This document shows, in pieces, positions 1 through 46,554 of a stretch of DNA of 64,000 nucleotides (positions are counted from its first letter, which is position 1; each line of letters opens with the position of its first letter). The stretch spans positions 5,026 through 69,025 of the forward strand of contig JALGSW010000047.1 in the NCBI GenBank assembly GCA_029821635.1, in the 5' to 3' direction. The notes under the pieces are model-generated. The model searched no databases. It was not told the origin of the DNA and was given only the letters and a program-made list of their open reading frames with translations. This DNA comes from Candidatus Zipacnadia bacterium (lineage in GTDB: Bacteria; Armatimonadota; Zipacnadia; Zipacnadales; UBA5352). The translations under genes and the position numbers were made by a program.

Positions 1-420
1 CAGGCTGACCTGGGCGGACTAGGGGCCGGAGAGGCCATGGGCCGGCTGGCCTCGACCATCGGTCTGCTCGCCGAGATCTGGGAGATGCCTCCCGATGAGC
101 GGCGCAAGCTCTGCCCGCAGATCGAGGAGTTCGCGGTCCGGTTGCTCGAGGCGTTCTACATGCGCGAGGAGGACATCGACGCGCATATCGAGCGACTGGC
201 ACGCGACTGGACCCTCGAACGCATGCCCGCCACAGATCGCAACGTGCTGCGCGTGGCGGCGGCGGAGCTGCTCGGCATGCCCGAGACACCGGTGAGTGTG
301 GTGTTCAACGAGGCGGTCGAGCTGGCGAAGACCTACGGCACCCCGGCTTCGGGCAAGTTCGTGAACGGGGTGCTCGCCACCCTCGCGCGTGAAGAGGGCC
401 TGACATCGGAGAAGGCGTGA
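1..420 (+). CDS. nusB: Transcription antitermination factor NusB (N-terminus probably cut by window edge)
   Basis: ORF 37..420. DRNVLRVAAAELL...VVFNEAVELAKTYGTPASGKFVNGVLA is the conserved NusB C-terminal half. The frame is open back to nt 1 and the usual N-terminal helices are short after M37, so the true start may lie upstream. Confidence 0.8.
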   Translation, partial: QADLGGLGAGEAMGRLASTIGLLAEIWEMPPDERRKLCPQIEEFAVRLLEAFYMREEDIDAHIERLARDWTLERMPATDRNVLRVAAAELLGMPETPVSVVFNEAVELAKTYGTPASGKFVNGVLATLAREEGLTSEKA

Positions 421-1946
421 GCCCGATGACGGAGAGCCGCGCGTCCGGGGAGCTCTCGCTGTCGGTCTCGGAGTTGACCGCGTACGTCAAGCGGCTGATC
501 GACCGCGACGAGGTGCTCAATCAGGTCTCGGTGCGCGGCGAGATCTCCAACTTCACCGCCCATCGCTCGGGGCATCTCTACTTCTCCCTCAAGGACGAGG
601 GCAGCCAGCTCAGTTGCGTCTGCTTCCGCGGCGACGCCTGCCGGCTGGGCTTCGAGCCAGAGCACGGGCAGCGGGTCATCGCGCACGGGAACGTGACGGT
701 GTACGAGGCGCGCGGTCAGTACCAGCTCATCGTGCGCGCGATGCGCCCTGACGGCGCGGGCGAGCTGGCGGCGGCGATCGCGAAGCTGCGGGCGAAGCTC
801 GAGGCGGAGGGCCTCTTCGAGCCATCGCGCAAGCGCCCTCTCCCCCGCTTCCCCAGGCGCATCGCACTGGTGACGTCGCCCACCGGAGCGGCCGTGCGCG
901 ATCTGATCAGCGTGATCTCGCGGCGCTTCCCGCCCGCGCACGTGATCGTCGTGCCGACGGTGGTGCAGGGCGAGGCCGCGCCCGACGCAGTCGTGCGCTC
1001 AATCGGCCTCGCGACCAGCGCATGCCGGGCGGACCTCGTGATCGTCGCGCGCGGCGGAGGATCACTGGAGGACCTCTGGGCGTTCTATGATGAGAGGGTC
1101 GTGCGCGCGGTCTTCGCCTGCCCGGTTCCGGTGATCAGCGCGGTCGGGCATGAGACCGACGTGAGCCTCTGCGACGAGGTAGCCGACCTGCGTGCCCCCA
1201 CACCATCGGCGGCGGGCGAGTTGGCAGTGCCGGATGTGCACGACCTCGCGGCAACGCTGGACCGGCTTGGCGGGCGGGCGCTGAGCGCGCTGGAGCGCGT
1301 GCTGACGATCGGCGGCTCCCGGCTGGGCGCGATCTGCACCCGGCCGATGATCGAGCGGCCGCTGAGCGTCGTTGAGCCACGCTGGCAGCGCCTCGATGAG
1401 GCGGCAGTGCGCGTGGTGCGCGCGCTGGGCGTGGCGACGGAGCGGCTGCACGAGCGCCTCGCCCGGACCGATCTGACGCTGCGGGCCCGTGACGCGCGGC
1501 TGCGCAGGCGGCTGCTGGGGCTCGAGGAGCGGCGGTTCGTGGTTGCGGAGGCAGGGCGCAGGAGCCAAACGGCGCTGGAGCGCGCGGTCGAGCGGCGGGA
1601 GGCGCGGGTGGCGGCTGCCGGAGGGAAGCTCACGCCACGCGTGACGGGCATGGACACGCTCTCGCTGGGCATCGACCGGCTCGACCAGCGCGGGAGGACG
1701 GCCGTCGCGCGGGGAGCCGAGCGGCTCGGGGCGCGGATGCACGCGGCCCAGGCGTCGCTGCGGGCGCTTGATCCGACGAAGGTGCTTGAGCGAGGCTACG
1801 CGCTGGTCTGGCGGCAGAGCGACCAGCGGCTGGTGCGCAGCGTCGAGCAGGTTCAGCCCGACGAGGGCATACACGTCTCAGTCGCCGATGGCAGGATCGA
1901 CGCGCAGGTGACCGGGACAGTCACGGAGAGCGCCGACGATGTCTGA
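417..1946 (+). CDS. xseA: Exodeoxyribonuclease VII large subunit
   Basis: 509-aa ORF. N-terminal OB-fold signature LSVSELTAYVKRLIDRDEVLNQVSVRGEISNF..GHLYFSLKD. GTG start overlaps nusB stop (GTGA). Confidence 0.9.
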   Translation: MSPMTESRASGELSLSVSELTAYVKRLIDRDEVLNQVSVRGEISNFTAHRSGHLYFSLKDEGSQLSCVCFRGDACRLGFEPEHGQRVIAHGNVTVYEARGQYQLIVRAMRPDGAGELAAAIAKLRAKLEAEGLFEPSRKRPLPRFPRRIALVTSPTGAAVRDLISVISRRFPPAHVIVVPTVVQGEAAPDAVVRSIGLATSACRADLVIVARGGGSLEDLWAFYDERVVRAVFACPVPVISAVGHETDVSLCDEVADLRAPTPSAAGELAVPDVHDLAATLDRLGGRALSALERVLTIGGSRLGAICTRPMIERPLSVVEPRWQRLDEAAVRVVRALGVATERLHERLARTDLTLRARDARLRRRLLGLEERRFVVAEAGRRSQTALERAVERREARVAAAGGKLTPRVTGMDTLSLGIDRLDQRGRTAVARGAERLGARMHAAQASLRALDPTKVLERGYALVWRQSDQRLVRSVEQVQPDEGIHVSVADGRIDAQVTGTVTESADDV

Positions 1947-2208
1947 GAATGACAGGCCGGTTGAGGAACTCGGGTTCGAAGAGGCGCTCGGCGAGCTGGA
2001 GCAGATCGTCGAGGAGCTTGAGGGTGGGCAGGTCGAGCTGGAGCGTATGCTCGATCGTTTCGAGCGCGCGATGGCGCTGCGCAAGCGCTGTGCGGCGCTG
2101 CTCGCGGACGCCGAAACGCGGATAGAGCAGCTTGTGAATGAGGAGGGAGCCACCGCGCCCTTCTCCACGCGCGCGAGCGCCGGTGATAGTAATGCCGATC
2201 AGACTTGA
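1939..2208 (+). CDS. xseB: Exodeoxyribonuclease VII small subunit
   Basis: 89-aa ORF with FEEALGELEQIVEELEGG..ELE motif. Start overlaps xseA stop by 8 nt. Confidence 0.9.
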   Translation: MSENDRPVEELGFEEALGELEQIVEELEGGQVELERMLDRFERAMALRKRCAALLADAETRIEQLVNEEGATAPFSTRASAGDSNADQT

Positions 2209-4066
2209 AGACATACATTCGCCCGCCGATCTGAAGGGTCTGAGCATCTCCGAGCTGGAGGCGCTGGCCGCACAGATCCGCGAGCGCATCATCACGACCG
2301 TCGCCGGGACAGGGGGCCACCTGGCCTCGAACCTCGGCGTGGTTGAACTGACGCTGGCGCTGCACGCGGTGCTCAACTCGCCCGTGGACAAGATCGTGTG
2401 GGACGTCAGCCACCAGTGCTACACGCACAAGCTCCTGACCGGGCGCCAGGATGAGTTCGCCACGCTGCGGCAGTACGAGGGGCTGGCGGGCTTCACCAAG
2501 CGCAGCGAGAGCGAGCACGATCCGTTCGGCGCCGGGCATGGTAGCACGTCGATCTCGGCGGCGCTGGGCTTCGCGAAGGCGCGCGACCTGCGTCACTCGC
2601 CCGAGCACATCGTCGCGATCATCGGCGACGGCGCGCTCACCGGCGGGCTGGCCTTCGAGGGCCTCAACGCCGCCGGGCACCTGGGCGCGGACATCACGGT
2701 ATTGCTCAATGACAATGAGATGTCGATCGCGAAGAACGTCGGCGCGCTTTCGTCGCACCTGGCGATGCTGCGGGCGAACGTGACTCCGGCGATCCGGCGG
2801 GCCCGCGAGGACCTCGCGCGGATGCTCGAACGGCTGCCGATGGGGCAGTCGATGGTGCTGGCGATGGACCGCTTCCGCGACGGCGTCAAGGGCATGATCA
2901 TTCCGGGGATGCTGTTCGAGACGCTCGGCTTCACCTACCTCGGGCCGATCGACGGGCACGACATCGCGGAGATGACGGAGATGCTCGGGCAGGCCGTTCG
3001 GCTGCCCGGACCGGTGCTGGTGCACGCCTTCACGCAGAAGGGCCGCGGCTACAAGCCCGCGGAGGAGGACCCGCGCAGCTTCCACTCGACCGGCGGGTTC
3101 GACGTGAAGACGGGCAAGTCCGAGAAGAAGCGCAAGGCGCGCACCTACAGCGCCGTCTTCGGCGACACGCTCTGCCGGGCGGCGGAGAGTGATGAGCGGA
3201 TCGTGGCGATCACCGCCGCGATGCTGGACGGGACGGGCGTGGAGTGCTTCAACCGGCGCTACCCCGAGCGGACCTTCGACGTGGGGCTGGCGGAGGAGCA
3301 CGCGGTGACCTTCGCGGCGGGCCTCGCGGCGGCAGGGATGAAGCCTGTCGTAGCGGTCTATTCGACCTTCCTGCAGCGCTCGTACGATCAGGTCATCCAC
3401 GACGTGGCGCTGCAGAACCTGCCTGTGGTCTTCGCACTGGACCGAGCCGGGCTGGTCGGCGATGACGGCCCGACGCATCACGGTGTCTTCGACCTGGCGT
3501 ACATGCGGCAGGTGCCGGAGATGACGGTGATGGCGCCGGCGGACGAGGCGGACATGCAGGACATGCTCGTGACCGCGCTGGCGCTGGAGGGCCCCTCGAG
3601 CGTGCGCTACCCGCGCGGCGAGGGCGAGGGGGTCGAGGTGGCGCGCGAGCCGGAGGCGCTGCCGGTGGGCAAGGCGAAGGTCCTGCGCGAGGGCGCGGAC
3701 GTGGCGATTCTCGCGGTCGGACCGCTGGCGCACCGCGCCGTGGAGGCGGCGGAGGTGCTGGCGGAGGAGGGGATCGAGGCCGCCGTGGTCAACGTTCGTT
3801 TTGTGAAGCCGATGGACGAGGAGCTTTTCCGCACATTGGCGCAGCAGACGGGTGCGCTGGTGACGGTGGAGGAGGGCATCCTCGCCGGCGGCTTCGGCTC
3901 CGCCGTGGCCGAGATGCTTGCCGACGCGGGGATGCACGAGGTGCGGCTGCGGCGGCTGGGGATCGGCGACGAGTTCGTTCAGGCGGGCGGGAACGATCTG
4001 CTGCTGGCGCAGTGGAACCTGAACGCGGATGGAATCGCCGAATCAGTGCGCGGCCTGCTCGGCTGA
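2192..4066 (+). CDS. dxs: 1-deoxy-D-xylulose-5-phosphate synthase
   Basis: MPIRLEDIHSPADLKGLSISELEALAAQIRERII, GHGSTSISAALG and IGDGALTGG (TPP motif) with full-length similarity to Dxs. ORF-track start 2138 trimmed to ATG at 2192. Confidence 0.95.
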   Translation: MPIRLEDIHSPADLKGLSISELEALAAQIRERIITTVAGTGGHLASNLGVVELTLALHAVLNSPVDKIVWDVSHQCYTHKLLTGRQDEFATLRQYEGLAGFTKRSESEHDPFGAGHGSTSISAALGFAKARDLRHSPEHIVAIIGDGALTGGLAFEGLNAAGHLGADITVLLNDNEMSIAKNVGALSSHLAMLRANVTPAIRRAREDLARMLERLPMGQSMVLAMDRFRDGVKGMIIPGMLFETLGFTYLGPIDGHDIAEMTEMLGQAVRLPGPVLVHAFTQKGRGYKPAEEDPRSFHSTGGFDVKTGKSEKKRKARTYSAVFGDTLCRAAESDERIVAITAAMLDGTGVECFNRRYPERTFDVGLAEEHAVTFAAGLAAAGMKPVVAVYSTFLQRSYDQVIHDVALQNLPVVFALDRAGLVGDDGPTHHGVFDLAYMRQVPEMTVMAPADEADMQDMLVTALALEGPSSVRYPRGEGEGVEVAREPEALPVGKAKVLREGADVAILAVGPLAHRAVEAAEVLAEEGIEAAVVNVRFVKPMDEELFRTLAQQTGALVTVEEGILAGGFGSAVAEMLADAGMHEVRLRRLGIGDEFVQAGGNDLLLAQWNLNADGIAESVRGLLG

Positions 4067-4166
4067 CGCGCGTTTGGCGCAAGTTGCGGCGTGCGCGCGC
4101 GCCGGGAGGCGCATGCGCCGCCGGGGGCAGCAGGTGACAACCAGGCTCACAAGGAGTGGTCGCGAG

Positions 4167-5654
4167 ATGGCACATGGCAACATGGGGCGCTGGAGCGTTG
4201 CGCTGATGGTCGTGGCGATCTTGGGGACCGGCTGCTGTTGCGCATGGGCACAGGACGAGGACCCGGGGCTGACGAGTTTCAACCAGGGCGTTGCGGACTA
4301 CGAGGCCGGCCAGCTCGAGCAGGCGCGCGACGCCTTCGCGGCGGCGCTGCAGGCTCGGCCGGATGACCCGACGATCCTGGTCTGGCTCGGCTCCGTCTCC
4401 CTGCAACTGGGTGACACCGAGGCGGCCATCGCGAACCTGCGCAAGGCGATTGAACAGGACCCCGACTACGCGGTCAGCTACAACAACCTCGGAAACGCCT
4501 ACCTCGCGACGGGGGACCTCACGCGAGCCGAGGAGCAGTATGTGAGAGCCATGGAGTTGGACCCGCAGTACTTCGATGCGGAGTACAACCTCGCCAACCT
4601 CTACGCGCGGCAGAGCCAGTTCGAGAAGGCGTACAACGCCTACAACCGAGCATTGGAGATCGACCCCAACGACTTCGAAGCGCACGTCTCCTTCGGCCAC
4701 GCACTGCGCAAGGCGAGCGATCCGAAGGCCCTGCGCGAGTTCGAAGCCGCGCGTGACCTCAACCCACAGGACGCCCCGGTGCAGACGGTCCTCGGCACGC
4801 TCTACGTCAAGGCGGGCCAGTGGGATGACGCGATCGCGGCCTACGAAGCGGCGCTGGCGGTCGATCAGGAGATCGTCGAGGCGCACGTGGGCATCGGGCT
4901 CGCGCTCTACAACACCGGCGAGTACCAGGCAGCGGCGCAGCACTGGTCCACGGCCGCGGCCCTCGACTCGACGAGCTTCGCCGCGCGCTACAACATGGGC
5001 CTGGCCTACGAGGCGCTGAAGGACTACGGGCAGGCCGCGAGCGCGTATGAGGCCGCGCTGCAGATCCGCCCCGATGACGCCAATACGCTCAACAACCTCG
5101 GCTCCGCGCTGCACGAGCAGGGCAAGTCCGAGGAGGCCGCGGGGTACTTCCGTCAGGCGATTGCGGCGAACCCCGACCTGCAGGTGGCGCACCTGAACCT
5201 GGCGCTGGCGCTGGAGGCGGCGGGCAATACGCAGGAGGCGCTCGCGCAGTGGCAGCAGGCCACCACGCGCTTCCCGGACGTGGCGGCGGCGCACTGCGGA
5301 CTGGCGAACCGCTACTACGGGCAGAAGGACTACGACCGGGCGCTCCCCGCCTACCTGCGCACGCTGGAACTGCAGCCGGACAACCTCGAGGCGCACAACA
5401 ACCTGGGGCTGATCTACTACCGCAAGGGCGAGCTTGCCGAGGCGGTCGTGCACTTCCGCGACGCGCTGCGCGTGAATCCGAACTACGTCTATGCGCTGAA
5501 CAACCTCGGGGTCGCGCTGGAGAAGCAGGACAAGCTGACTGAGGCGCTGGACCAGTACCGCAAGGCGCTGGAGATCGACCCGAGCTACGCGCCTGCGAAG
5601 AGCAACTTCGACCGCCTGGAGAAGAAGCTGGGCACAGGCGCGGCGACGGGCTAG
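4167..5654 (+). CDS. Secreted/lipoprotein-like tetratricopeptide (TPR) repeat protein
   Basis: Start moved to ATG 4167 (AAGGAG 10 nt upstream). Signal-like MAHGNMGRWSVALMVVAILGTGCCC, followed by about 13 tandem 34-aa TPR units (..A...Y..AL.L.P....A..NLG..). Confidence 0.8.
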   Translation: MAHGNMGRWSVALMVVAILGTGCCCAWAQDEDPGLTSFNQGVADYEAGQLEQARDAFAAALQARPDDPTILVWLGSVSLQLGDTEAAIANLRKAIEQDPDYAVSYNNLGNAYLATGDLTRAEEQYVRAMELDPQYFDAEYNLANLYARQSQFEKAYNAYNRALEIDPNDFEAHVSFGHALRKASDPKALREFEAARDLNPQDAPVQTVLGTLYVKAGQWDDAIAAYEAALAVDQEIVEAHVGIGLALYNTGEYQAAAQHWSTAAALDSTSFAARYNMGLAYEALKDYGQAASAYEAALQIRPDDANTLNNLGSALHEQGKSEEAAGYFRQAIAANPDLQVAHLNLALALEAAGNTQEALAQWQQATTRFPDVAAAHCGLANRYYGQKDYDRALPAYLRTLELQPDNLEAHNNLGLIYYRKGELAEAVVHFRDALRVNPNYVYALNNLGVALEKQDKLTEALDQYRKALEIDPSYAPAKSNFDRLEKKLGTGAATG

Positions 5655-5804
5655 CCGGGAGCTGCAGGCCGGTGCCGTTGGAGGGGCCGCCCCGACGCGA
5701 AGCGGAGGGGTCAGACGGCGCCAGCCGGCTGAGCCGCTGTGCCGGCCCGCCGTTGTGACGAGCGAAGCGGGACGCAGACGAGGACGCAACCGGAAGGGAC
5801 TTTC

Positions 5805-6683
5805 ATGCCGGAGCCGATCAAGAGCGTCGGGATCGTCACCGCGCTGCACAAGCCGCGGGCGCAGGAGGCCACACGCAGGGCCGTGGAGCTGCTCGAGCAA
5901 GCGGGGGCCGAGGTGGTGTTCAGCGAGGCGCTGGCTGAGGCCTGCGGCCTCGGAGGCACGCCTTGCACCGACGTGGTGGAGGCGCGTCCGGACCTGATGC
6001 TGGTGATGGGCGGCGACGGAACGTTCCTCTCCGCCGCGCGCATGATGGCGCCGATCGCCACGCCGCTGCTGGGCGTGGACCTCGGCGGCTTCGGCTTCCT
6101 CGCGGAGGAGGAGCCGTCGTGGGTGCTCGATGAGATCGAGCGCATCCTCTCCGGCGAGTTCACGATCGACGAGCGCATCATGCTGGCCGTGAAGCTGCAC
6201 CGCGATGGTGAGACGGTCGCGGAGCTGCTGGGCCTCAATGACGCGGTGATGGCGACCGGCAGCTTCCGGCGCCTCGTGACGCTGACGCTGCGCGTGAACG
6301 AGACCGGGCCGACGCGCTTCGGCGCGGACGGGCTGATCGTCTCGACGCCGACCGGCTCCACCGCTTACTCGCTCTCGGCGGGCGGCGCGATCGTCCACCC
6401 GAACGTGCAGGCGATCCTGATCACCGCGATCTGCCCGCACACGCTCTCGATGCGGCCGCTGGTGATCGACGCGGGCAGCACCGTGAGCGTGACCATCGAG
6501 CCCTCGCGCGAGCCGCAGGAGGGCCTGGCACTGACGATCGACGGGCAGGAGACGGTGGGCCTCGAGCCAGACGACGAGGTGGTGGTAACGCGCGCGGAAT
6601 GCCGGGCGCGCGTGGTGCGCCTCGGGCGCAGGACGTTCTACGACCGGCTGCGGACGAAACTTCGTTGGGGGGACACGCGCTAG
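5805..6683 (+). CDS. nadK: NAD kinase
   Basis: GGDGTFL motif, NDAV, GLIVSTPTGSTAYSLSAGG. Start set to ATG 5805 with GGAAGGGA RBS. Confidence 0.9.
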   Translation: MPEPIKSVGIVTALHKPRAQEATRRAVELLEQAGAEVVFSEALAEACGLGGTPCTDVVEARPDLMLVMGGDGTFLSAARMMAPIATPLLGVDLGGFGFLAEEEPSWVLDEIERILSGEFTIDERIMLAVKLHRDGETVAELLGLNDAVMATGSFRRLVTLTLRVNETGPTRFGADGLIVSTPTGSTAYSLSAGGAIVHPNVQAILITAICPHTLSMRPLVIDAGSTVSVTIEPSREPQEGLALTIDGQETVGLEPDDEVVVTRAECRARVVRLGRRTFYDRLRTKLRWGDTR

Positions 6684-37729: not shown

Positions 37730-37759
37730 TTGACGGGCGCGGAAGCAGTCAAGTATGAT
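37730..37759 (+). promoter_or_regulatory. Sigma-70-type promoter upstream of 37839 gene
   Basis: TTGACG (37730-37735), 18-nt spacer, TATGAT (37754-37759). Confidence 0.5.
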
Positions 37760-37838
37760 GCGAAGGGGCTGGTGTGAGGGACGTACGCCGGCCACCAAAC
37801 AAGCAGGCTGCAGTGAAGTCGTGAGGAGGGTGGGCTCC

Positions 37839-39149
37839 ATGCTCCGAGGCCGATCCATCGTATTGGCACTCGCGTTCCTCGGCGCGATGAGTATCTGCGC
37901 TGCCCAGGAGACGGCTGAAATAATCGTCGGGGGCCAGACCGTCGCGCGGGTCCGCGAGGCGGGGACGTATGAGTCCGTGCAGCATCGCGCGGCAGCGGTG
38001 GATGAGCGGGTCAACCAGTTGCTTGCCACCACGGACGATCCGGGATCGCTCGAGGTCAGCCTGGAGCAAATGGATGGCCGCTGGACGGTCATGATCGCGG
38101 GAGAGGCGATCGTGGCGGTGTACCCGGCTGAGGCCGAGGCCAACGTCATGACGCCGGAGATGCTCGGCGCGATGTGGGTGCGCAAGTTCAAGGACGCGCT
38201 GCCCACCGCGACCTGCGCTCCGGTGACCGTGATCGGTGAGCCGACCGAGACGACCACGACGCCGACGACGACTGCGACGCCCCCCGACCAGCCCATCATG
38301 ATCGCCGACGAGCCGGTGCTCTCCAGCCCGACGACGGGCGATGAGACCGTGACGACGCCGACGACGACTACCGCCGCGCCTCCGGCCACGACGACCGTTG
38401 TCCCGACGACCGCTGCTCCGCCGCCCGGCGGCTCGACGGTGGAGATCCTCGAGGTGCCGGAGGAGGTCACCAACGAGCCGGAGGTGGTCGTAGCCGGTCA
38501 GGGCGCGCGGCTGCTGATCCTCGAAGCATTCAACAACTCCCGCGATCTGACCGAGGATGACTACCTCGTACGGCGCGAGACGATGGCGAACGACCTCTTC
38601 GACAACCTCGTGCAGATGATGACCGGCGGCAGGGCCACCGGGCGCATCGAGACCAGCGGCGCGATCTCCCTCCCGACGCCCCCGCGCCCGCCCGTGACGG
38701 TCCCGACCACGCCGCCTCCGACCACCACGGCGACGACGACGACCGCGCAGCCGCCCACCACGCACACCGTGGACACGGGGCCGATGTCGCCGGAGACGCT
38801 GCCGACGGCCACGATGACCACGGGCGCGGCTCCGTCGCTCGCAATGAGCGCCGCGTCGCTCGCGAAGATAAACGCAGAGATACCCGCGAACGACCCGAGC
38901 TACGCGAACGTGGTGAAGAAGGTCGCGATCAAGGCGAAGTTCCGCGCGGCCTCCGAGGCCCTCCGGACCACTGATCCGGCGACGAAGGCGCAGGCGATGG
39001 AGGTGCTGACCGCGGCCCGCCGGGCGAACACCGACCAGGACTGGGACGCCGCGGAGCAGCACGTTGACACCGGTCTGGGCATCCTCGGCGTGACGGAGTG
39101 GGAGCAGCACATCGGCGCCGCGATGCGCGACCTCGGGCTCGTGCAGTAG
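37839..39149 (+). CDS. Secreted hypothetical protein with Thr/Pro-rich linkers
   Basis: Signal MLRGRSIVLALAFLGAMSICAAQE with GAGGAGG RBS. Three PT-rich low-complexity linkers separate small globular segments. No family recognised. Confidence 0.6.
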   Translation: MLRGRSIVLALAFLGAMSICAAQETAEIIVGGQTVARVREAGTYESVQHRAAAVDERVNQLLATTDDPGSLEVSLEQMDGRWTVMIAGEAIVAVYPAEAEANVMTPEMLGAMWVRKFKDALPTATCAPVTVIGEPTETTTTPTTTATPPDQPIMIADEPVLSSPTTGDETVTTPTTTTAAPPATTTVVPTTAAPPPGGSTVEILEVPEEVTNEPEVVVAGQGARLLILEAFNNSRDLTEDDYLVRRETMANDLFDNLVQMMTGGRATGRIETSGAISLPTPPRPPVTVPTTPPPTTTATTTTAQPPTTHTVDTGPMSPETLPTATMTTGAAPSLAMSAASLAKINAEIPANDPSYANVVKKVAIKAKFRAASEALRTTDPATKAQAMEVLTAARRANTDQDWDAAEQHVDTGLGILGVTEWEQHIGAAMRDLGLVQ

Positions 39150-40477: not shown

Positions 40478-41470
40478 TCACTCGATCGTCGGCTCGTCAT
40501 CGCCGTCCGGGCTCGGCGCTCCGTACGGCGGCAGGACCGTGTAGGGCCCCGGCGGAAGCCATCGCAGCGCCTCGCGCATCTGCTCCTCACGCAACATTCG
40601 CTCCCGGATGCGCGCGGACCTGCGGCGGATCACCAGCCACGCGATCAGGAACGCCACGACGAAGAGCGCGCCGATCAGCGCCTCGGACAGCGGCGGGGCC
40701 ACGTCGCGCAGGTAGGCGGTGTGCAGGCTCTCCAGCCACTGAGCCTCCATCTCCGGCACCGGCCGGTGGAAAGCGAGGCCCAGCGCCAGGCGCATGTCGC
40801 GCCCCTGCGCGAGCTGATCCAGCAGCGGGCTGATCCCCCGCCCCGGCGTGATCTCGCTCAGGTACGCCACCAGCGTGTAGCTCTGCGCGTACGCCAGGTC
40901 CACCTGCTCGCGCTTGCCGGCGAAGGCCCCCTCAAGCTGATCGATCGTGAGCAGCTCGTCGGCGAGAGCCGCGCGGCCGATCACCTGCCGCTCGGCCTCA
41001 TCGAAGTCGTCGGCGGCGTACTTCGCGATGCCCTCATGCAGCCAGCGGGGCAGCACGTCCGCTCTCTCCCCCATCCGCAGGTCGAGCATCACGTGCGCCA
41101 GTTCGTGCGCGATGAGCTTGGGCAGCCGCTGCGGCCCCATCGGCTTCACCACCACGCGCATCATCCCCGGTAGCGCGCGGCCGATCGTCCACGGCTTGTT
41201 TCTGCCGCCGGTCAGCTCATCGAACTCCGCTGCCGAGCGCACGATGTACACGTCGATGCGCTCGTCAAGCTCGATGTCCAGCATCTTCTCCAGGCGCACG
41301 AGGGCCTCGTTGCCGGCGTCGCGCGCGATCTCCCCCAGCTCGACCTGCTCCGGCCAGTGCAGCACACGCAGGTGCTCGCTGGTGAGGATGTGCCGCTGCT
41401 CGGGCGCCGCCGGAGCGCTCGCGAGGAGCACCGGCACACACACGACCACCCACGCTGCGTAGCGCCTCAT
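40478..41470 (-). CDS. Peptidase MA-family (gluzincin-like) protein with C-terminal TM anchor
   Basis: Signal peptide, LIAHELAHVMLD (HExxH) and downstream WLHEGIAKY, TM helix LIGALFVVAFLIAWLVI. Confidence 0.7.
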   Translation of the reverse strand: MRRYAAWVVVCVPVLLASAPAAPEQRHILTSEHLRVLHWPEQVELGEIARDAGNEALVRLEKMLDIELDERIDVYIVRSAAEFDELTGGRNKPWTIGRALPGMMRVVVKPMGPQRLPKLIAHELAHVMLDLRMGERADVLPRWLHEGIAKYAADDFDEAERQVIGRAALADELLTIDQLEGAFAGKREQVDLAYAQSYTLVAYLSEITPGRGISPLLDQLAQGRDMRLALGLAFHRPVPEMEAQWLESLHTAYLRDVAPPLSEALIGALFVVAFLIAWLVIRRRSARIRERMLREEQMREALRWLPPGPYTVLPPYGAPSPDGDDEPTIE

Positions 41471-41476
41471 CGCCGA

Positions 41477-42262
41477 TCACCCAAGCGCGGGGCACCTGCT
41501 TCGCGCGCGGCACCATCGGCAGTGCATGTCGGGCTTCGGCGGGAACTCCGTGGCGACGCGGATACGGTCGGCCACGCGCGTGGCGCGCCGCGCGAGCGCC
41601 TCCAGCTCCGCGTCGGTGAAGCGTGCGCGGTGCCCGCCGCCGCGCCGCAGGGAGTACATCGTGACGGACACGTCCTCGTCGGGAAACTGCTCCCTCATGC
41701 AGGCGAAGAACAGCCCCCAGCCGGTGCTGTCGAAGATGTCCTCGGCCGACGGCGGCTTGCGCGCGGAGAGCCAGCGCAGGCCGTTCACGCTACCGTCCGG
41801 CTCGCGGAGGACCACGTCGGCCACCGAGACGAAGCGGTGGCCGCCCAGCTCCACCTCCATGCGCAGGTCCACCTCGATCACTTCGGCGGAGCGGCCGACG
41901 TCGCCGGCGTGGTAGTCGCGCAGGAGCTTGAGGCCCTGGGCGTGCAGCCGCTCCTCTTCGAGGCTGTCGGCGCAGACCGAGCCGTCCCAGGCGTCGTCGA
42001 AAACTGCCGCAAGCCGCGCGGGATCGACCTGAGCCGGACCGCCGAGGCGGTGGCAATCAACCAGCGCCTCGCGCAGCGCCTGATGGAGCATTGCGGGCCC
42101 GCCGAGGAAGCGCTGCGTCTCCTCCCGCGGCACGAACCACGACAGCAGGAACTTCTGCGGACACTGATGGTAGTCCGCCAGGTTCCGCGCGGTGAAGGGC
42201 CGATCCGGGAGGTCGATCGGCTCCACAATCTCAGGCACGTCATCACTCCGGTCGGGCATCAT
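41477..42262 (-). CDS. PD-(D/E)XK (Cas4/AddB-like) nuclease family protein with Cys cluster
   Basis: N-terminal YHQCPQKF and C-terminal CRWCRARSRCP match the Cas4/AddB-type Fe-S cysteines. The core is RecB-like, but the canonical D...(D/E)xK is not obvious by eye. Confidence 0.65.
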   Translation of the reverse strand: MMPDRSDDVPEIVEPIDLPDRPFTARNLADYHQCPQKFLLSWFVPREETQRFLGGPAMLHQALREALVDCHRLGGPAQVDPARLAAVFDDAWDGSVCADSLEEERLHAQGLKLLRDYHAGDVGRSAEVIEVDLRMEVELGGHRFVSVADVVLREPDGSVNGLRWLSARKPPSAEDIFDSTGWGLFFACMREQFPDEDVSVTMYSLRRGGGHRARFTDAELEALARRATRVADRIRVATEFPPKPDMHCRWCRARSRCPALG

Positions 42263-42380
42263 CTCACCTCACAGGCAGCTTCGTCGGGGGCCTCGTCGCG
42301 ACCTGCAGCCGACGAGCGAGTGCCGCGTCGCGAGGAGGTCCGGCGGCTGCCCCTGGCGCATACACGCGCGGGGGTCATGC

Positions 42381-44399
42381 ATGCGTCCCGATCACTCGCT
42401 CGACGACATCATGCGCCAACGCTTCCCGCGGCGGGAACTCACTCCCGCCGCGCGCGGCGTCATCGAGGCGCTCCTCGGCGGCGGCCACGCGCTCCTCGTG
42501 TCCCCGGACTGGCGTGAGCGCGAGCTTCCGTGGCGGCTCGCGGCCGAGGCGGGACTGCGGCCACTGCTGGTGGTCGCGGACTCCGAGCGCGACCTGCAGA
42601 GCCGTGCCGAGGCCCTCGCGGGGGAGCTCGACCTCGTCGCCTGCGCCCTGCACGCCCGCCTCGAAGACGAACACCTGCGCGGCCTCGCGGAGCAGCTCGC
42701 CGGGGGCAAGTGGGACGCGGCGTTCGTCTCAGGCCGCAGCCTTGCCGACCCGCGGCTGATGGCTGCCGCGCGCGCGCTGGCCCCGCGCCTGCTCGTCATC
42801 GAGGACGCGCACCGGGCGAGCATGCACGGGCATCGCTACGACCTCGCCTGGCTGCACGCGGCGGGCCTCGTGCCGGAGGCGGGGAGCGTGCTGGCGCTCG
42901 CGGACGTCGCCAATTTGACCGCCCGCGAAGACCTGATCGCCCGCCTCGGCCTCGACGGCTGCCACGTTGCGCTGGGCCAACTCGACCGCCCCGGTCTTCG
43001 CATCGAGGCCCGGCGCGTGGGCAGCCAGCCGGAAGCGGACCGGAACCTGCTGGGCCTGCTGGCCGACTCCCCCGAGCGCGCGGTCATCCATGCGAGCGAG
43101 CGCGTGGAGGCGGAGCGGCTCGCGGCGCTGGTGCGCGACGAGCGCGGCTTCGACGCGCTGGACATGACGAACCTCAACGCGCGGGAGTTCGGCGCGGCGC
43201 TCAGGCGCTTCCGCGAGGGCGGTCTGCGCGCCATCACCACCACCGGCGCGCTCGAACCCGGACCCGGCTGGCCGCCGATCCCGGTCAGCGCGATCGTCGG
43301 GATGCCCGCGAGCCTCGAGCTACTGCACCGGCAGATGCACGTCGCGAGCGGAGAAGGCGCCATCGCGGTGCTCGTCCACGAGCGGGATGAGACGCCTCGT
43401 CTGGAACGTGCCGCGATGCGATCGGCGTTCGACGCCGGCCATCTGCTGGGCCTCTATGAGGCGCTGATCAGCGGCGAGGAACTCCGCTTCAACGCGCTGT
43501 CCGCCCGCACCGGCCTGCGCCCGGAGGAGGTCAACCTCGGCGTCGAGGCGCTGATCCACGCGGGTGCGGTGACGGTGCTCGCGCGCGGCGATGCCTGGCT
43601 GCGAGCCGAGCCGCACGGCTCTCTTAGCACCGAGACGCTGGAGCGCTGGGGCCGGGAGGCGGACGCGATCCGCCGCGTGCGTCTGCAGCAGGTCGCGCAG
43701 GTCGAGGACTTCGTGGCGAGCCGGCGCTGCCTGCGCGCGATTCTCTCCGAGGCGCTCGGCTACCCCCTCGCTGAGGGGCGCTGCGAGTGCGGGCGCTGCC
43801 GGCCGCGGGAGGCGGTGCTCGTCCCGCGGCGCGTGCCGGGCGGCTACCCGATCGAGGCCGGGCAGTTCCGTGGCTGGGCGCTCGGGCTCTACCGCCGCCC
43901 CGGTGAGGAGACGCCGGGCGGGGTGCCGGGCAAGCTCATCGAGCAGCTCAAGTACCTTGACAGCGAGCCCGCCGGGCGCAGACTCGCGGGTCTGATGGCC
44001 AGGCGCGTGATGGAGTCGCGCACCTACCGCGACTGCGAGGTGCTCGTGCCCGTGCCGCCGTCGGACCCCGAGGCGACCGACTCGGCCGCGCTCTTCCTGG
44101 CGCGGGCGATCGGCTCGCAGGCCGAGCTGCCGGTGGCTGAGGCGCTGATCTCCGCGCAGGATCGCGTTCCTCAGAAGGAACTGACCTTCGTCAGCGCGAA
44201 ACGGGACAACATCGCACAGGCGTTCGCAGTCGCATCCCCCGACGAAGTGGCGGGCCTGCGGGTGCTGCTCGTGGATGACATCTTCGACTCGGGCGCGACG
44301 ATGCAGGAGGCCGGGAAGATGCTCCTGCACGCGGGGGCGGCCGACGTTCGGCTGCTCGCGGCGGTGCGCACGAGCTTCGGTTGGCGACGGGACGTGTGA
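42381..44399 (+). CDS. Fusion protein: degenerate RecQ-like helicase fold + winged-helix/Zn-finger-like region + ComF-type phosphoribosyltransferase domain
   Basis: 672 aa from ATG 42381. Collinear with RecQ, but PTGGGKS is PDWRERE, DEAH is EDAH and GRAGRDG is HVASGEG. The C-terminal approximately 210 aa are ComF/ComFC-like (VLVPVPPS, VLLVDDIFDSGATMQEA). Confidence 0.7.
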   Translation: MRPDHSLDDIMRQRFPRRELTPAARGVIEALLGGGHALLVSPDWRERELPWRLAAEAGLRPLLVVADSERDLQSRAEALAGELDLVACALHARLEDEHLRGLAEQLAGGKWDAAFVSGRSLADPRLMAAARALAPRLLVIEDAHRASMHGHRYDLAWLHAAGLVPEAGSVLALADVANLTAREDLIARLGLDGCHVALGQLDRPGLRIEARRVGSQPEADRNLLGLLADSPERAVIHASERVEAERLAALVRDERGFDALDMTNLNAREFGAALRRFREGGLRAITTTGALEPGPGWPPIPVSAIVGMPASLELLHRQMHVASGEGAIAVLVHERDETPRLERAAMRSAFDAGHLLGLYEALISGEELRFNALSARTGLRPEEVNLGVEALIHAGAVTVLARGDAWLRAEPHGSLSTETLERWGREADAIRRVRLQQVAQVEDFVASRRCLRAILSEALGYPLAEGRCECGRCRPREAVLVPRRVPGGYPIEAGQFRGWALGLYRRPGEETPGGVPGKLIEQLKYLDSEPAGRRLAGLMARRVMESRTYRDCEVLVPVPPSDPEATDSAALFLARAIGSQAELPVAEALISAQDRVPQKELTFVSAKRDNIAQAFAVASPDEVAGLRVLLVDDIFDSGATMQEAGKMLLHAGAADVRLLAAVRTSFGWRRDV

Positions 44400-44402
44400 G
44401 AG

Positions 44403-45353
44403 ATGCGCATCAGCAGCCCGCAACCGGACGAGCAGGACCGCCTCGCTTGGACCGCGCTGGCGTGGTCGGGTCGCATCGGGCCGGCGGGCTTCATGCGCCT
44501 GCTCGCGCGCTTCGGCTCAGCGGCGGCGGTGCTGGCGGCGCCTGAGGGCGAGCTGGCGGCGCCGAGCCTGCGACTGAAGCCCGGTCAGATCGAGGCCATC
44601 ACCACCGACGCCCGCGCCCACCGCGACCGCATCGAGGCCGAACTGGGAACGCTCGCGGACGACGGCGTGGTGGTCGTGTGCGCCTTCGAGCCTGCCTACC
44701 CCGACGCGCTGCGCGACGCGCGCACCCCTCCGCCGGTGATCTGCGTACGCGGCGAGCTGGCGCCCGACGACACGCTGGGCCTCGCCATCGTCGGCACGCG
44801 CGAGCCGACCGCCGAGGGCCGCCGCGTCGCTACGGACGTCGCGGCCGCCTGCGCGCAGCACGGGCTGACCGTCGTCTCCGGGCTGGCGATCGGCATTGAC
44901 ACGTGCGCGCATCGCGGCGCATTGCGAGCCGGCGGGCGCACGGTGGCGGTGCTCGGCTCGGGCATCCGGCAGATCCACCCTCGGCGCAACACGCGCCTGG
45001 CAGGGCGGATCGCGGCAAGTGGCGCGATTGTCTCGGAGTTCCCGCCCGACGCCCACCCCTCAGCGGCGAGGCTGATGGCGCGCAACCGCCTCACCAGCGC
45101 CTTCGCGCGCGGCGTGCTGGCGGTGGAGTCCACGCTCACCGGCGGCACACTCAAGACCGCCCGGGAGGCCCGGGCTCAGGGCCGCGTGGTCCTCGCCTGC
45201 GACTGGCACTGTGACCGGCCGCAGGCGGAAGGGACGCGGCTGCTGATCGCGGAGGGCGCCGAGCCGATCCTCGGTGCGGGCGCGATCGACACGATCGTTC
45301 ACCTGCTGGCGACGCACCGCCCTCCCCCGCCCGACCAGCCCGCACTTCTGTGA
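44403..45353 (+). CDS. dprA: DNA processing protein DprA
   Basis: VICVRGEL...LAIVGTREPT..G......A......GLTVVSGLAIGIDTCAHRGAL..GGRTVAVLGSGI. Starts 3 nt after the upstream stop. Confidence 0.9.
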   Translation: MRISSPQPDEQDRLAWTALAWSGRIGPAGFMRLLARFGSAAAVLAAPEGELAAPSLRLKPGQIEAITTDARAHRDRIEAELGTLADDGVVVVCAFEPAYPDALRDARTPPPVICVRGELAPDDTLGLAIVGTREPTAEGRRVATDVAAACAQHGLTVVSGLAIGIDTCAHRGALRAGGRTVAVLGSGIRQIHPRRNTRLAGRIAASGAIVSEFPPDAHPSAARLMARNRLTSAFARGVLAVESTLTGGTLKTAREARAQGRVVLACDWHCDRPQAEGTRLLIAEGAEPILGAGAIDTIVHLLATHRPPPPDQPALL

Positions 45354-45429
45354 GCGGCGGCAGGTCCGCGCGGTTCCGGGGAGGAAGCAGCCCGAGACGC
45401 GTGAAGACGCCTCCGAGAGGACTGCCGCG

Positions 45430-46554
45430 ATGATTGATCCGCACGCGATGGCACAGGAGTTCTGCGAACTCGTACGCGTTGACAGCCCGTCGCTGCGTGA
45501 GTCCGAGGTCAACGCGTTAATCCATGACCGGCTCGCGGAGATGGGCATTGAGGCCCGCGCCGATGACGCCGCCGCGACCGTCGGGGGCAACGCGAGCAAC
45601 CTGATCGCCCGTGTGCCGGGCGTCTCCGGCGCGCCGACGGTGCTGCTCAACGCGCACACGGACACCGTCGAGCCCGGCTGCGGGATCTGCCCGCAGATCG
45701 AGGATACGGTCATCCGCAGCTCCGGCACGACGGTGCTCGGGGCCGATGACAAGGCCGGCTGCGCGATCATCCTCGCCACGCTGCGCCACCTGCTGGATAA
45801 GGGCCTGCCGCACCCACCGCTGGAGGTCATCTTCACGGTCGCCGAGGAGATCGGCCTGTGCGGCGCGCAGGCGCTCGACTACGGCGCGCTCGAGGCGAGC
45901 ATGGGCTACGTGCTCGACGGCGGCCGGACGATGGGGGTCATCACCCACGCGGCACCGTCCGCGTACAAGTTCGAGTGGTCGGTGCGCGGCATCGCCGCGC
46001 ACGCAGGCGTCTGCCCCGAGCGCGGCCTCAACTCCATCAAGGTCGCGGCGGAGGCGATCGCGGAGCTCCCGCTGGGGCGGCTGGACTTCGAAACGACCGC
46101 GAACATCGGCGTGATCCGCGGCGGCGAGGCTACCAACATCGTCCCTGAGCTGACCGTGGTCCGCGGCGAGGCGCGCAGTCACAGCGACGAGAAGCTCGAG
46201 GCCCAGCGGGAGCTGATGGTCCGGGCGTTCGAGGAGGCGGCGGCGCGTCACGAGACGACCGCCGAGGCGAGCGTCACAAGCACCTACCGCAGCTTCGACG
46301 TCGCGCGTGATGAGCAGGTGCTCGACTACGCCTGGCGGGCCTGCGAGCGCCTTGGCTTCGACCCGCAGATGGAGCGCGGCGGCGGTGGCAGCGACGCGAA
46401 CGTCTTCAACGAACACGGGATCCCGAGCATCATCCTCGCCACCGGACCCGCCGAAGTGCACACCGTCAACGAGTGGGTCGATGCGCAGCGCATGGCGGAG
46501 AGCGCACGCTGGCTGACGGAGACGCTCGTGCTGATCGCCGAGGAGGCGCAGTGA
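45430..46554 (+). CDS. M20/M25/M40-family metallopeptidase (PepT-like)
   Basis: LLNAHTDTVEPG, GADDKAGCA, FTVAEEIGLCGA, GGGSDANVF. Confidence 0.8.
   Translation: MIDPHAMAQEFCELVRVDSPSLRESEVNALIHDRLAEMGIEARADDAAATVGGNASNLIARVPGVSGAPTVLLNAHTDTVEPGCGICPQIEDTVIRSSGTTVLGADDKAGCAIILATLRHLLDKGLPHPPLEVIFTVAEEIGLCGAQALDYGALEASMGYVLDGGRTMGVITHAAPSAYKFEWSVRGIAAHAGVCPERGLNSIKVAAEAIAELPLGRLDFETTANIGVIRGGEATNIVPELTVVRGEARSHSDEKLEAQRELMVRAFEEAAARHETTAEASVTSTYRSFDVARDEQVLDYAWRACERLGFDPQMERGGGGSDANVFNEHGIPSIILATGPAEVHTVNEWVDAQRMAESARWLTETLVLIAEEAQ

Follow-up and report, generated by a model that had tools for sequence, protein, structure and literature searches.

The 64,000-nt stretch of DNA analysed in this study, which we refer to as the window, belongs to contig JALGSW010000047.1 (assembly GCA_029821635.1) of a Candidatus Zipacnadia bacterium, and its position 1 corresponds to position 5,026 of the contig. 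The locus studied, at window positions 41477-45353, consists of a gene for a protein with a Cas4 fold, a gene whose product joins a RecQ-like body to a ComF-type phosphoribosyltransferase (PRTase) domain, which we call the fusion gene, and dprA (Table 1). The fusion gene (42381..44399, + strand) encodes a 672-aa product; its in-frame ATG at 42381 is situated 6 nt past a GGGGG run and agrees with the N-termini of all homologs. The dprA start lies 3 nt beyond the fusion-gene stop. Our results point to a member of the described RqlH/PsyrT family that very probably no longer functions as an ATPase and whose partner is the lineage's own canonical DprA. Homologs were collected by a word-indexed search, an exhaustive profile search and a scan of species-representative genomes, and are given here as protein (P) and locus (L) numbers. 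The structure of the fusion protein was predicted with AlphaFold2 (AF2) from 17 family sequences, and folds were compared with Foldseek.

Table 1. Features of the locus at window positions 41477-45353.
Feature	Position	Strand	Residues	Basis
Cas4/AddB-fold PD-(D/E)XK-like protein, 261 aa	41477..42262	-		PF12705, AF2, Foldseek
Divergent intergenic (promoter/5'-leader) region, 118 nt	42263..42380	.		between Cas4-fold and fusion genes
RecQ-like two-lobe superfamily 2 (SF2) core, motifs 0, I, Ia, II, III, V and VI replaced (pseudo-helicase)	42381..43385	+	1-335	PDB, Foldseek, alignments
RqlH-specific linker, predicted winged-helix domain	43386..43655	+	336-425	AF2, alignment
RecQ-type zinc-binding module (C450, C468, C470, C473)	43656..43820	+	426-480	alignments
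ComF-type PRTase domain, phosphoribosyl pyrophosphate (PRPP) loop VLLVDDIFDSGAT intact, then stop	43926..44399	+	516-672	PF00156, TIGR00201
Canonical dprA, 316 aa (DprA_N HHH domain + Rossmann fold)	44403..45353	+		TIGR00732, PF02481, PF21102

The N-terminal part of the fusion protein is collinear over aa 9-328 with solved RecQ cores (4tmu, E 2.6e-8; 1oyw, E 6.8e-8; 4q47, E 3.1e-7), and the NCBIfam recQ models match aa 10-315 at E ~1e-8, with scores that lie far under their cut-offs (32.1 vs 219.8 bits for TIGR00614 and 33.5 vs 640.2 bits for TIGR01389). A Pfam scan of the 672-aa protein gave PF00156 as the sole domain and no match to PF00270, PF00271, HRDC or RQC. The AF2 model (predicted local distance difference score, pLDDT, 88.3; predicted template modelling score, pTM, 0.87) has RecQ, RECQL5, BLM and RECQ1 as its closest folds in the PDB (Foldseek E ~1e-20). 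The segment that follows has no counterpart in true RecQ (alignment A1), yet it can be aligned with PsyrT proteins and with the relative P0030; in the model it is made of helices at 352-394 and then a beta hairpin at 397-411. The four cysteines listed in Table 1 align with the RecQ zinc cysteines, C450, C470 and C473 being invariant in the clade of close relatives, and PF16124 (RecQ_Zn_bind) matches the relatives P0019 and P0030. The alternative that this cysteine cluster is the zinc finger of ComFC was ruled out by its alignment with the RecQ zinc module CRRxxL...CxCxxC.

The C-terminal domain matches PF00156 (Pribosyltran) above cut-off at aa 600-663 (E 8.9e-8), and TIGR00201 (comF) covers aa 518-661 at E 7.5e-9, with 35.8 bits against a cut-off of 233.55 and through model positions 47-188 only. 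A ComFC-type N-terminal zinc finger was not matched in the fusion protein, as positions 1-46 of TIGR00201 are uncovered. The PRPP loop VLLVDDIFDSGAT and its residues D632, D633, D636, S637, G638 and A639 are invariant in the clade. The original prediction for this DNA had read a region of RecQ ancestry, a winged-helix-like segment, a zinc finger and an in-frame ComF-type PRTase in that order, and this reading held, the winged helix proving to be the RqlH-specific linker. An origin of the fusion by misassembly or frameshift, which would have told against the prediction, was ruled out by the full-length fusion recurring in more than 20 independent assemblies and by the coding-type G+C content at third codon positions (0.89 in 42381..44399) within a window whose G+C is 65-73% throughout.

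The helicase motifs of this RecQ-like body have been replaced throughout, as had been proposed from the sequence, and each listed replacement was found by alignment where it had been placed. Walker A PTGxGKS has become PDWRERE (aa 42-48, nt 42504-42524), motif Ia SPLIALM has become VVADSERD, motif II DEAH has become EDAH, motif III TAT has become ADV and motif VI QxxGRAGRDG has become RQMHVASGEG; the Q-motif and motif V are likewise lost. A functional Walker A or B elsewhere in the protein would have told against the proposal, and none was found, a string search of the whole 672-aa protein giving no GK[ST] and no DExH/D. The 'DEVH/DEAH' strings near aa 389 of some clade members were considered as a Walker B and ruled out, because they lie in a helix of the winged-helix linker, where the window protein has PEEVN. 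Judged by these replacements, the protein is very probably ATPase-dead. It is most unlikely, although the fold is preserved, the deep-branching P0017 keeps GKS and several members keep AGRDG, that the RecQ-like core is a cryptic ATPase which binds and hydrolyses ATP through non-canonical residues. The window's subclade is without the Q-motif, the P-loop lysine, both Walker B acidic residues in DEAH order, motif III and both arginines of motif VI, and in RqlH of Mycobacterium smegmatis (MSMEG_5935; Ordonez, Unciuleac & Shuman 2012), a DNA-dependent ATPase and 3'-5' helicase, K49A or D148A alone suffices to abolish ATPase activity (PMC3378886).

The loss of the motifs is graded among relatives. 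The word-indexed search returned 21 full-length homologs of 44-82% identity, every named one of them from metagenome-assembled genomes (MAGs) of Armatimonadota, and the exhaustive profile search added about eight further clusters at 50% identity; the Armatimonadota class names used for related loci are the labels carried by their MAG records. In the alignments DEAH of motif II and GRAGR of motif VI are absent from all proteins of the motif-dead clade, which counts about 20 members from Armatimonadota assemblies. Remnants persist on its deep branch, namely PEGHGKS in P0017, PEGSGRS in P0018 and AGRDG in P0018, P0025 and P0028, and the window's subclade has no helicase motif left. Outside the motif-dead clade, the helicase motifs are intact in P0030, in P0034 and in the protein of locus L033. 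P0030 is the next-best profile match (556 bits); it has APTGSGKS, DEAH, TATAT and GRAGRDG, and it clears the RecQ-family model with 353 bits against the cut-off of 219.8. On its contig (L028) P0030 is flanked by a divergent Cas4-fold gene on the upstream side, 63% identical over the portion that is present, and by dprA (55-58% identity) on the downstream side. Because the layout of nuclease-like gene and dprA is the same, P0030 is an intact-helicase ortholog of the window gene, and the existence of an intact ortholog at the same locus implies that the window's clade descends from an active enzyme. Between the window protein and P0030 the helicase lobes are 29-31% identical and the PRTase domain 45%. 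The dprA match of L028 (2638-3148) consists of two overlapping tblastn segments in different frames, and the gene call starts late, which may reflect a frameshift or an assembly error.

The fusion gene is the fastest-evolving member of its gene block, at 43-64% identity between loci as compared to 65-76% for DprA and 72-85% for the neighbouring M20 peptidase. Its rate of change was examined as the ratio of nonsynonymous to synonymous substitutions (dN/dS) in one sequence pair, the window gene and its 82%-identical ortholog in L029, with dS unsaturated; the ratio is 0.27-0.36 for the helicase-like lobes, 0.34 for the linker, 0.29 for the zinc module and 0.44 for the PRTase domain. There are also invariant patches specific to the clade, for example RRFREGG (aa 274-280). 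These sequence comparisons indicate that the gene is under purifying selection and is not decaying. A different explanation, that the gene is a relic with its helicase function gone, a pseudogene in the making without a role, would account for the loss of every catalytic helicase motif, for the lowest identity among the block genes and for the absence of the gene from a related lineage (L031). It is largely refuted, and very improbable in our view, because the full-length frame is intact in more than 20 assemblies at 43-82% identity, dN/dS is about 0.3 in every segment, the PRPP loop and the zinc cysteines are invariant and the fold is confidently predicted.

The original prediction had held that no family with this architecture had been described, and that claim did not survive, since the architecture is that of RqlH/PsyrT. 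In RqlH, a RecQ-like ATPase is followed by a family-specific linker of ~90 aa, then by a tetracysteine zinc domain and last by a ComF-like PRTase (PMC3378886), and the best PADLOC match of the window protein is PsyrT (PDLC03928; E 8.2e-39), at a weak 131 bits in two stretches of which the best spans positions 86-480 of 689. P0030 matches the same model with 441 bits (E 1.7e-132) over positions 12-685 of 689. Distant full-length relatives of 23-25% identity were found among the species representatives in Synergistaceae, Azonexus, Propionivibrio, Gallionella, Bacteroidales, Anaerolineales and Microscillaceae, and in all of these loci, from at least six phyla, a DprA-like gene lies directly downstream. 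The proteins of two of them, L009 and L012, have intact GxGKS, DEAH, TATAT and GRAGR motifs and a C-terminal PRTase, and they match PsyrT at E 3e-291 and 3e-246. The pairing with a DprA-like gene is a defining trait of RqlHI/PsyrTA (PMC4670107; bioRxiv 10.1101/2022.05.11.491447), so that both the architecture and the gene order place the window gene, almost certainly, as a member of the RqlH/PsyrT family that has decayed in an Armatimonadota clade. What is new here is the motif-dead clade, its canonical DprA partner and its housekeeping setting; the architecture itself was already known.

Annotation pipelines label the proteins of the clade 'phosphoribosyltransferase family protein' or 'helicase-related protein'. 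The searches also returned a large tier of proteins of 800-1180 aa (P0036-P0080) in which an intact RecQ core and zinc module are followed by RQC, HTH_40 and HEAT repeats, with the PRTase at the C-terminus; this longer arrangement is not the RqlH architecture.

Members of the RqlH/PsyrT family have been linked both to toxicity and to phage defence. The E. coli RqlH/RqlI and P. syringae PsyrT/PsyrA pairs are toxin-antitoxin-like (PMC4670107). PsyrTA is listed as a phage-defence system with a DprA-like antitoxin (bioRxiv 10.1101/2022.05.11.491447), and for PsyrTA that preprint also cites Sberro 2013 and Millman 2022. E. coli RqlH is toxic only if its PRTase, D663 of the PRPP pocket included, and other parts of the protein are in place; the toxicity remains in the helicase-dead K49A and D148A variants, and RqlI binds RqlH and counteracts it (PMC4670107). 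By comparison of the motifs, D636 of the window protein (DDIFD) would be the counterpart of D663, a residue of the mutated DIVD motif and one that toxicity needs.

The partner of the fusion gene was the next element of the original prediction, which had proposed an operon-like coupling to dprA; the 3-nt gap and the recurrence of a downstream DprA-fold gene in related loci bear this out. The fusion gene or its intact counterpart is followed by a DprA-fold gene in L001-L007, L028, L030 and L033, and in the distant loci L008-L013 and L016. The window DprA scores 202.9 bits on the DprA equivalog model TIGR00732 (cut-off 191.15 bits), matches PF02481 at E 6.2e-61 and also matches PF21102. For its orthologs in L001, L004 and L005 the TIGR00732 score is 197-207 bits, as compared to 96-102 bits for the PsyrA-type partners in L009 and L012, and the PsyrA model covers the window DprA only at positions 86-293 of 398, the DprA-like core. 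A neighbour-joining tree places the Armatimonadota partners among canonical DprAs and well away from the PsyrA type. Canonical-type DprAs of 46-50% identity occur in other contexts in L033 and L030, where an intact RqlH-like gene precedes them, and in L032, where dprA stands alone. The window partner is thus the lineage's own syntenic canonical dprA, not a PsyrA-type antitoxin. In L030, the region that holds P0034 (intact, RqlH-like) and a canonical-type dprA (48% identical) at 965-4150 (+) also carries a divergent gene at 3-767 (-) whose product is T2SSF/PilC-like by eye, with no Pfam call; judged by this resemblance it is a possible link to type IV pilus/competence genes.

The locus lies in a collinear ten-gene block common to the window and seven other genome loci, whose labels are Candidatus Zipacnadia and Armatimonadia. 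The order is an unknown protein of 451-464 aa, a HAD hydrolase, an MscS-like channel, a Peptidase_MA_2-like protein, the Cas4-fold gene on the - strand, the fusion gene, dprA, the M20 peptidase and another conserved gene. The first of these is, in the window, a 464-aa protein (37755-39149, +) with long Thr/Pro-rich low-complexity stretches and no Pfam match, which is found at the same position in related loci with 45-65% identity. Housekeeping functions are also encoded in the wider window, by genes for a class I (Trp/Tyr-type) tRNA synthetase, an M48 peptidase, a radical SAM protein, a rhamnosidase, MutS2, a deacetylase and an aminotransferase. None of the neighbours annotated in the window is a restriction, integrase, transposase or competence gene, and scans of the whole 64-kb window gave no tRNA gene and, at the gathering threshold, no Rfam family. 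We conclude that the module is vertically inherited in a housekeeping block and does not lie in a defence island.

Presence or absence of the fusion gene is a clean polymorphism, as shown by the more distantly related L031 (JGI 3300033145, a 55.5-kb contig, positions 4103-5948; DprA 56% identical). Here the block is kept, but only 118 nt of intergenic DNA separate the Cas4-fold gene from dprA, and the fusion gene is missing. The Cas4-fold/dprA intergenic region of L031 shares conserved blocks with that of the window. Because the block exists without it, the fusion gene is an accessory gene sited between the promoter and dprA.

These observations bear on whether the locus could be a working abortive-infection or toxin-antitoxin defence system of the PsyrTA type that has become chromosomally stable, with the dead helicase serving as a phage sensor. 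PsyrTA is the closest characterised family, the toxin-first, DprA-like-second order and the tight coupling are those expected, and the fusion gene is both accessory and fast-evolving, all of which would fit such a system. The annotated neighbours, however, are neither defence-island nor mobile-element genes, synteny is kept across records labelled as different classes, and the supposed antitoxin is a syntenic housekeeping dprA that is present without the toxin in L031. We therefore consider active defence improbable. In contrast to the housekeeping context of the window, the PsyrTA of L009 lies in a typical defence island. In that Azonexus MAG (L009, 736-9277), PsyrTA (PsyrT E 3e-291, PsyrA E 8e-134) is immediately preceded by genes for a 1263-aa DrmMI-like/type IIG methyltransferase and for an unknown protein of 427 aa.

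The divergent Cas4-fold gene matches PF12705 (PDDEXK_1) at E 4.7e-12, and its AF2 model (pLDDT 87.6) is closest in Foldseek to Cas4-family ACE1, AdnAB, Dna2, AddB and SSO0001; a sequence search of the protein against the PDB gave no match. C33, C247, C250 and C256, which are of the Fe-S type, and R162 and R167 are invariant in the family alignments A3 and A5, in agreement with the proposal of a Cas4/AddB-type gene with its cysteines, transcribed divergently 118 nt upstream. The strand beta3 (aa 158-164) has the invariant R162 and then x-[K/L/N/V], with no (D/E)xK, among family members down to 36% identity, so that Arg occupies the position of the acidic residue; at the Lys position, Leu, Asn or Val is found in most of the family. 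Judged by sequence and model register, the protein is probably not a canonical nuclease, and if so, two 'dead-enzyme' DNA proteins would flank dprA.

The specific link between the nuclease-like gene and the fusion gene that the original prediction had suggested was ruled out by L031, which has the nuclease-like gene, dprA and a homologous intergenic region with no fusion gene. Because L031 has these two genes without the fusion gene, and because the Cas4-fold gene is syntenic in all the Armatimonadota loci as well as in L031, it is to the dprA locus that the Cas4-fold gene belongs, not specifically to the fusion gene. A Rosetta-stone link between nuclease and fusion protein was likewise ruled out: the PADLOC match 'HEAT_CxxC_PDDEXK' in the 1081-aa P0040 corresponds to HEAT repeats, and long relatives such as P0040 consist of RecQ, Zn, RQC, HTH_40, HEAT and PRTase parts with no nuclease domain.

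The intergenic region contains an inverted repeat (42288-42302 and 42327-42341) with arms of 15 nt, 87% complementarity and a 24-nt spacer. Its blocks CGCGACCTGC and GGAGGTC are kept in orthologous loci, and partly in L031 ahead of dprA, and the repeat of L005 has one compensatory pair (CACCT...AGGTG). The repeat could act in the divergent promoter region as an operator or as a hairpin of the 5' leader. A promoter and terminator scan of 41300-45600 found nothing, and no sigma-70 consensus match was present in 42263-42380.

The explanation of the window locus that we consider best overall, and to which we would give an even chance, is a catalytically degenerate RqlH/PsyrT member in which the PRTase would be the effector, the dead helicase a scaffold and DprA a partner or antagonist; the specifically antagonistic, RqlHI-like mechanism has an even chance at best. 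In such a scheme an ancestor, inferred by comparison of the loci, would have carried an intact RqlH-type helicase-PRTase between the Cas4-fold gene and the lineage's own dprA, and in one Armatimonadota clade the ATPase motifs would have decayed stepwise while the fold, the zinc site, the linker and the PRPP loop were held by purifying selection. The PRTase domain, being the sole catalytic or ligand-binding site that remains, would act as the effector by analogy with RqlHI and with ShosTA, in which the toxic PRTase ShosT is offset by ShosA, a DNA binder that resembles DprA (PMC11961720). The dead RecQ-like body, linker and zinc module could serve as a non-motor scaffold on which the PRTase is positioned or regulated and to which a partner or DNA docks. 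The co-transcribed DprA would be a physical and functional partner that plays toward the PRTase the part that RqlI plays toward RqlH, restraining its effect on DNA metabolism or compensating for it.

Several points weigh against this explanation. The PRTase activity, DprA binding and toxicity ascribed to the clade, like every functional statement here, are drawn by analogy. A further concern is that RqlI did not rescue the loss of viability caused by helicase-dead E. coli RqlH (K49A/D148A) (PMC4670107). Cells would hardly tolerate a naturally dead helicase joined to a toxic PRTase that had not changed, and the PRTase activity may therefore have changed too. The window DprA is without the N- and C-terminal regions specific to PsyrA/RqlI, and long vertical inheritance in a housekeeping block is atypical of toxin-antitoxin or defence modules. 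In RecQ, motifs Ia and V hold single-stranded DNA (ssDNA), and because these ssDNA-contacting motifs are lost, DNA binding by the RecQ-like body is uncertain.

The main rival explanation would be that the fusion protein is a cooperative, ComFC-like ssDNA factor that hands DNA to DprA/RecA in transformation or recombinational repair, with no toxin-antitoxin relation; intact relatives would then act as RecQ plus RecA loader, and the dead version would have kept only binding and hand-off. This possibility is supported by the PRTase being more ComF-like (35.8 bits, and 49.5 bits for P0030) than the classical PsyrT of L009, which has no ComF match at E <= 1e-5, by the partner being a canonical DprA and by the vertical inheritance of the locus in a housekeeping setting. 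ComFC binds ssDNA, is needed after DNA uptake and has a reported contact with DprA in S. pneumoniae and C. jejuni (PMC9005727). The ComFC-type N-terminal zinc finger is absent, however, the fusion gene is dispensable, as L031 and L032 have dprA without it, no competence genes are found among the annotated window neighbours, and the fusion gene is the fastest-evolving of its block. A cooperative role is possible but, on balance, unlikely, and the analogy with ComFA/ComFC/DprA that the original prediction had drawn is a possible lead.

Returning to a degenerate RqlH/PsyrT module, the canonical chromosomal DprA partner and the vertical housekeeping inheritance lead us to read it as RqlHI-like but domesticated or fixed, and not as a mobile cassette for defence. 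In a more specific version, the fusion protein would be a domesticated toxin that has lost its motor and is now a fixed, non-catalytic adaptor or regulator of the canonical DprA-RecA pathway, or else part of a chromosomal addiction module with the housekeeping DprA as antitoxin; we regard this version as rather doubtful. If it were true, the locus would represent a living intermediate between ComFC/DprA and PsyrTA/ShosTA, and the core function of the RqlH family would need no helicase.

The clade can be viewed as an evolutionary knock-out experiment that speaks against a need for translocation in at least one of the conserved functions of the RqlH/PsyrT family, and this agrees with E. coli, in which helicase-dead RqlH still causes PRTase-dependent damage. 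The intact P0030, the partly decayed P0017 and P0018 and the fully decayed members provide a matched series at one locus for comparison, which can help to establish the role of the RqlH/PsyrT PRTase and the relation of PsyrTA/ShosTA to ComFC-DprA. The canonical-dprA pairing points to ComFC-DprA handling of ssDNA as the possible origin of the PsyrA/ShosA antitoxins and their PRTase toxins, or as the relationship that they plug into. The practical consequence, which concerns annotation, is modest.

Among known systems, RecQ itself, as represented by the structures from E. coli, D. radiodurans and C. sakazakii, shares with the window protein the two RecA-like lobes and the zinc module (Foldseek ~1e-20; sequence ~1e-8), but has the catalytic motifs, an RQC winged helix after the zinc module and HRDC. 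The pair of ComFC and DprA, joined by ComFA in Firmicutes, shares with the window locus a ComF-type PRTase that has a PRPP loop, and its link to canonical DprA, functional as well as physical, would have a counterpart there (PMC9005727). In contrast, ComFC is a protein of ~200-250 aa with its own N-terminal four-cysteine zinc finger, which is missing from the window protein, ComFA is a different and active helicase, and the window locus is without evidence of competence. ShosTA combines a PRTase-containing toxin with a DprA-like (SAM + Rossmann) DNA-binding partner, an arrangement that the window locus resembles, and the window DprA scores 201 bits on the ShosA model; the N-terminus of ShosT, however, is a HAD-type pyrophosphatase and not a RecQ-like body, and its match to the window PRTase is weak (E 5.6e-6).

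The closest comparison is with RqlH. The M. smegmatis protein has the same domain order as the window protein, no HRDC and a similar length (691 vs 672 aa), but it is active, whereas the equivalents of K49 and D148 and all other motifs are replaced here. The RqlHI of extraintestinal pathogenic E. coli (ExPEC) and PsyrTA (PADLOC PDLC03928/PDLC03927) differ from the window locus in that PsyrA/RqlI is a protein of ~400 aa with extra N-terminal and helix-turn-helix regions and the window partner is a 316-aa canonical DprA, and in that the window locus is vertically inherited among housekeeping genes, has a naturally dead helicase and matches PsyrT weakly (131 bits). In both, the helicase-PRTase gene lies directly upstream of a DprA-fold gene and the PRPP-loop aspartates on which RqlH toxicity depends are kept, and the natural loss of the motor in the window's clade has its parallel in the finding that helicase activity is not needed for the toxicity of RqlH.

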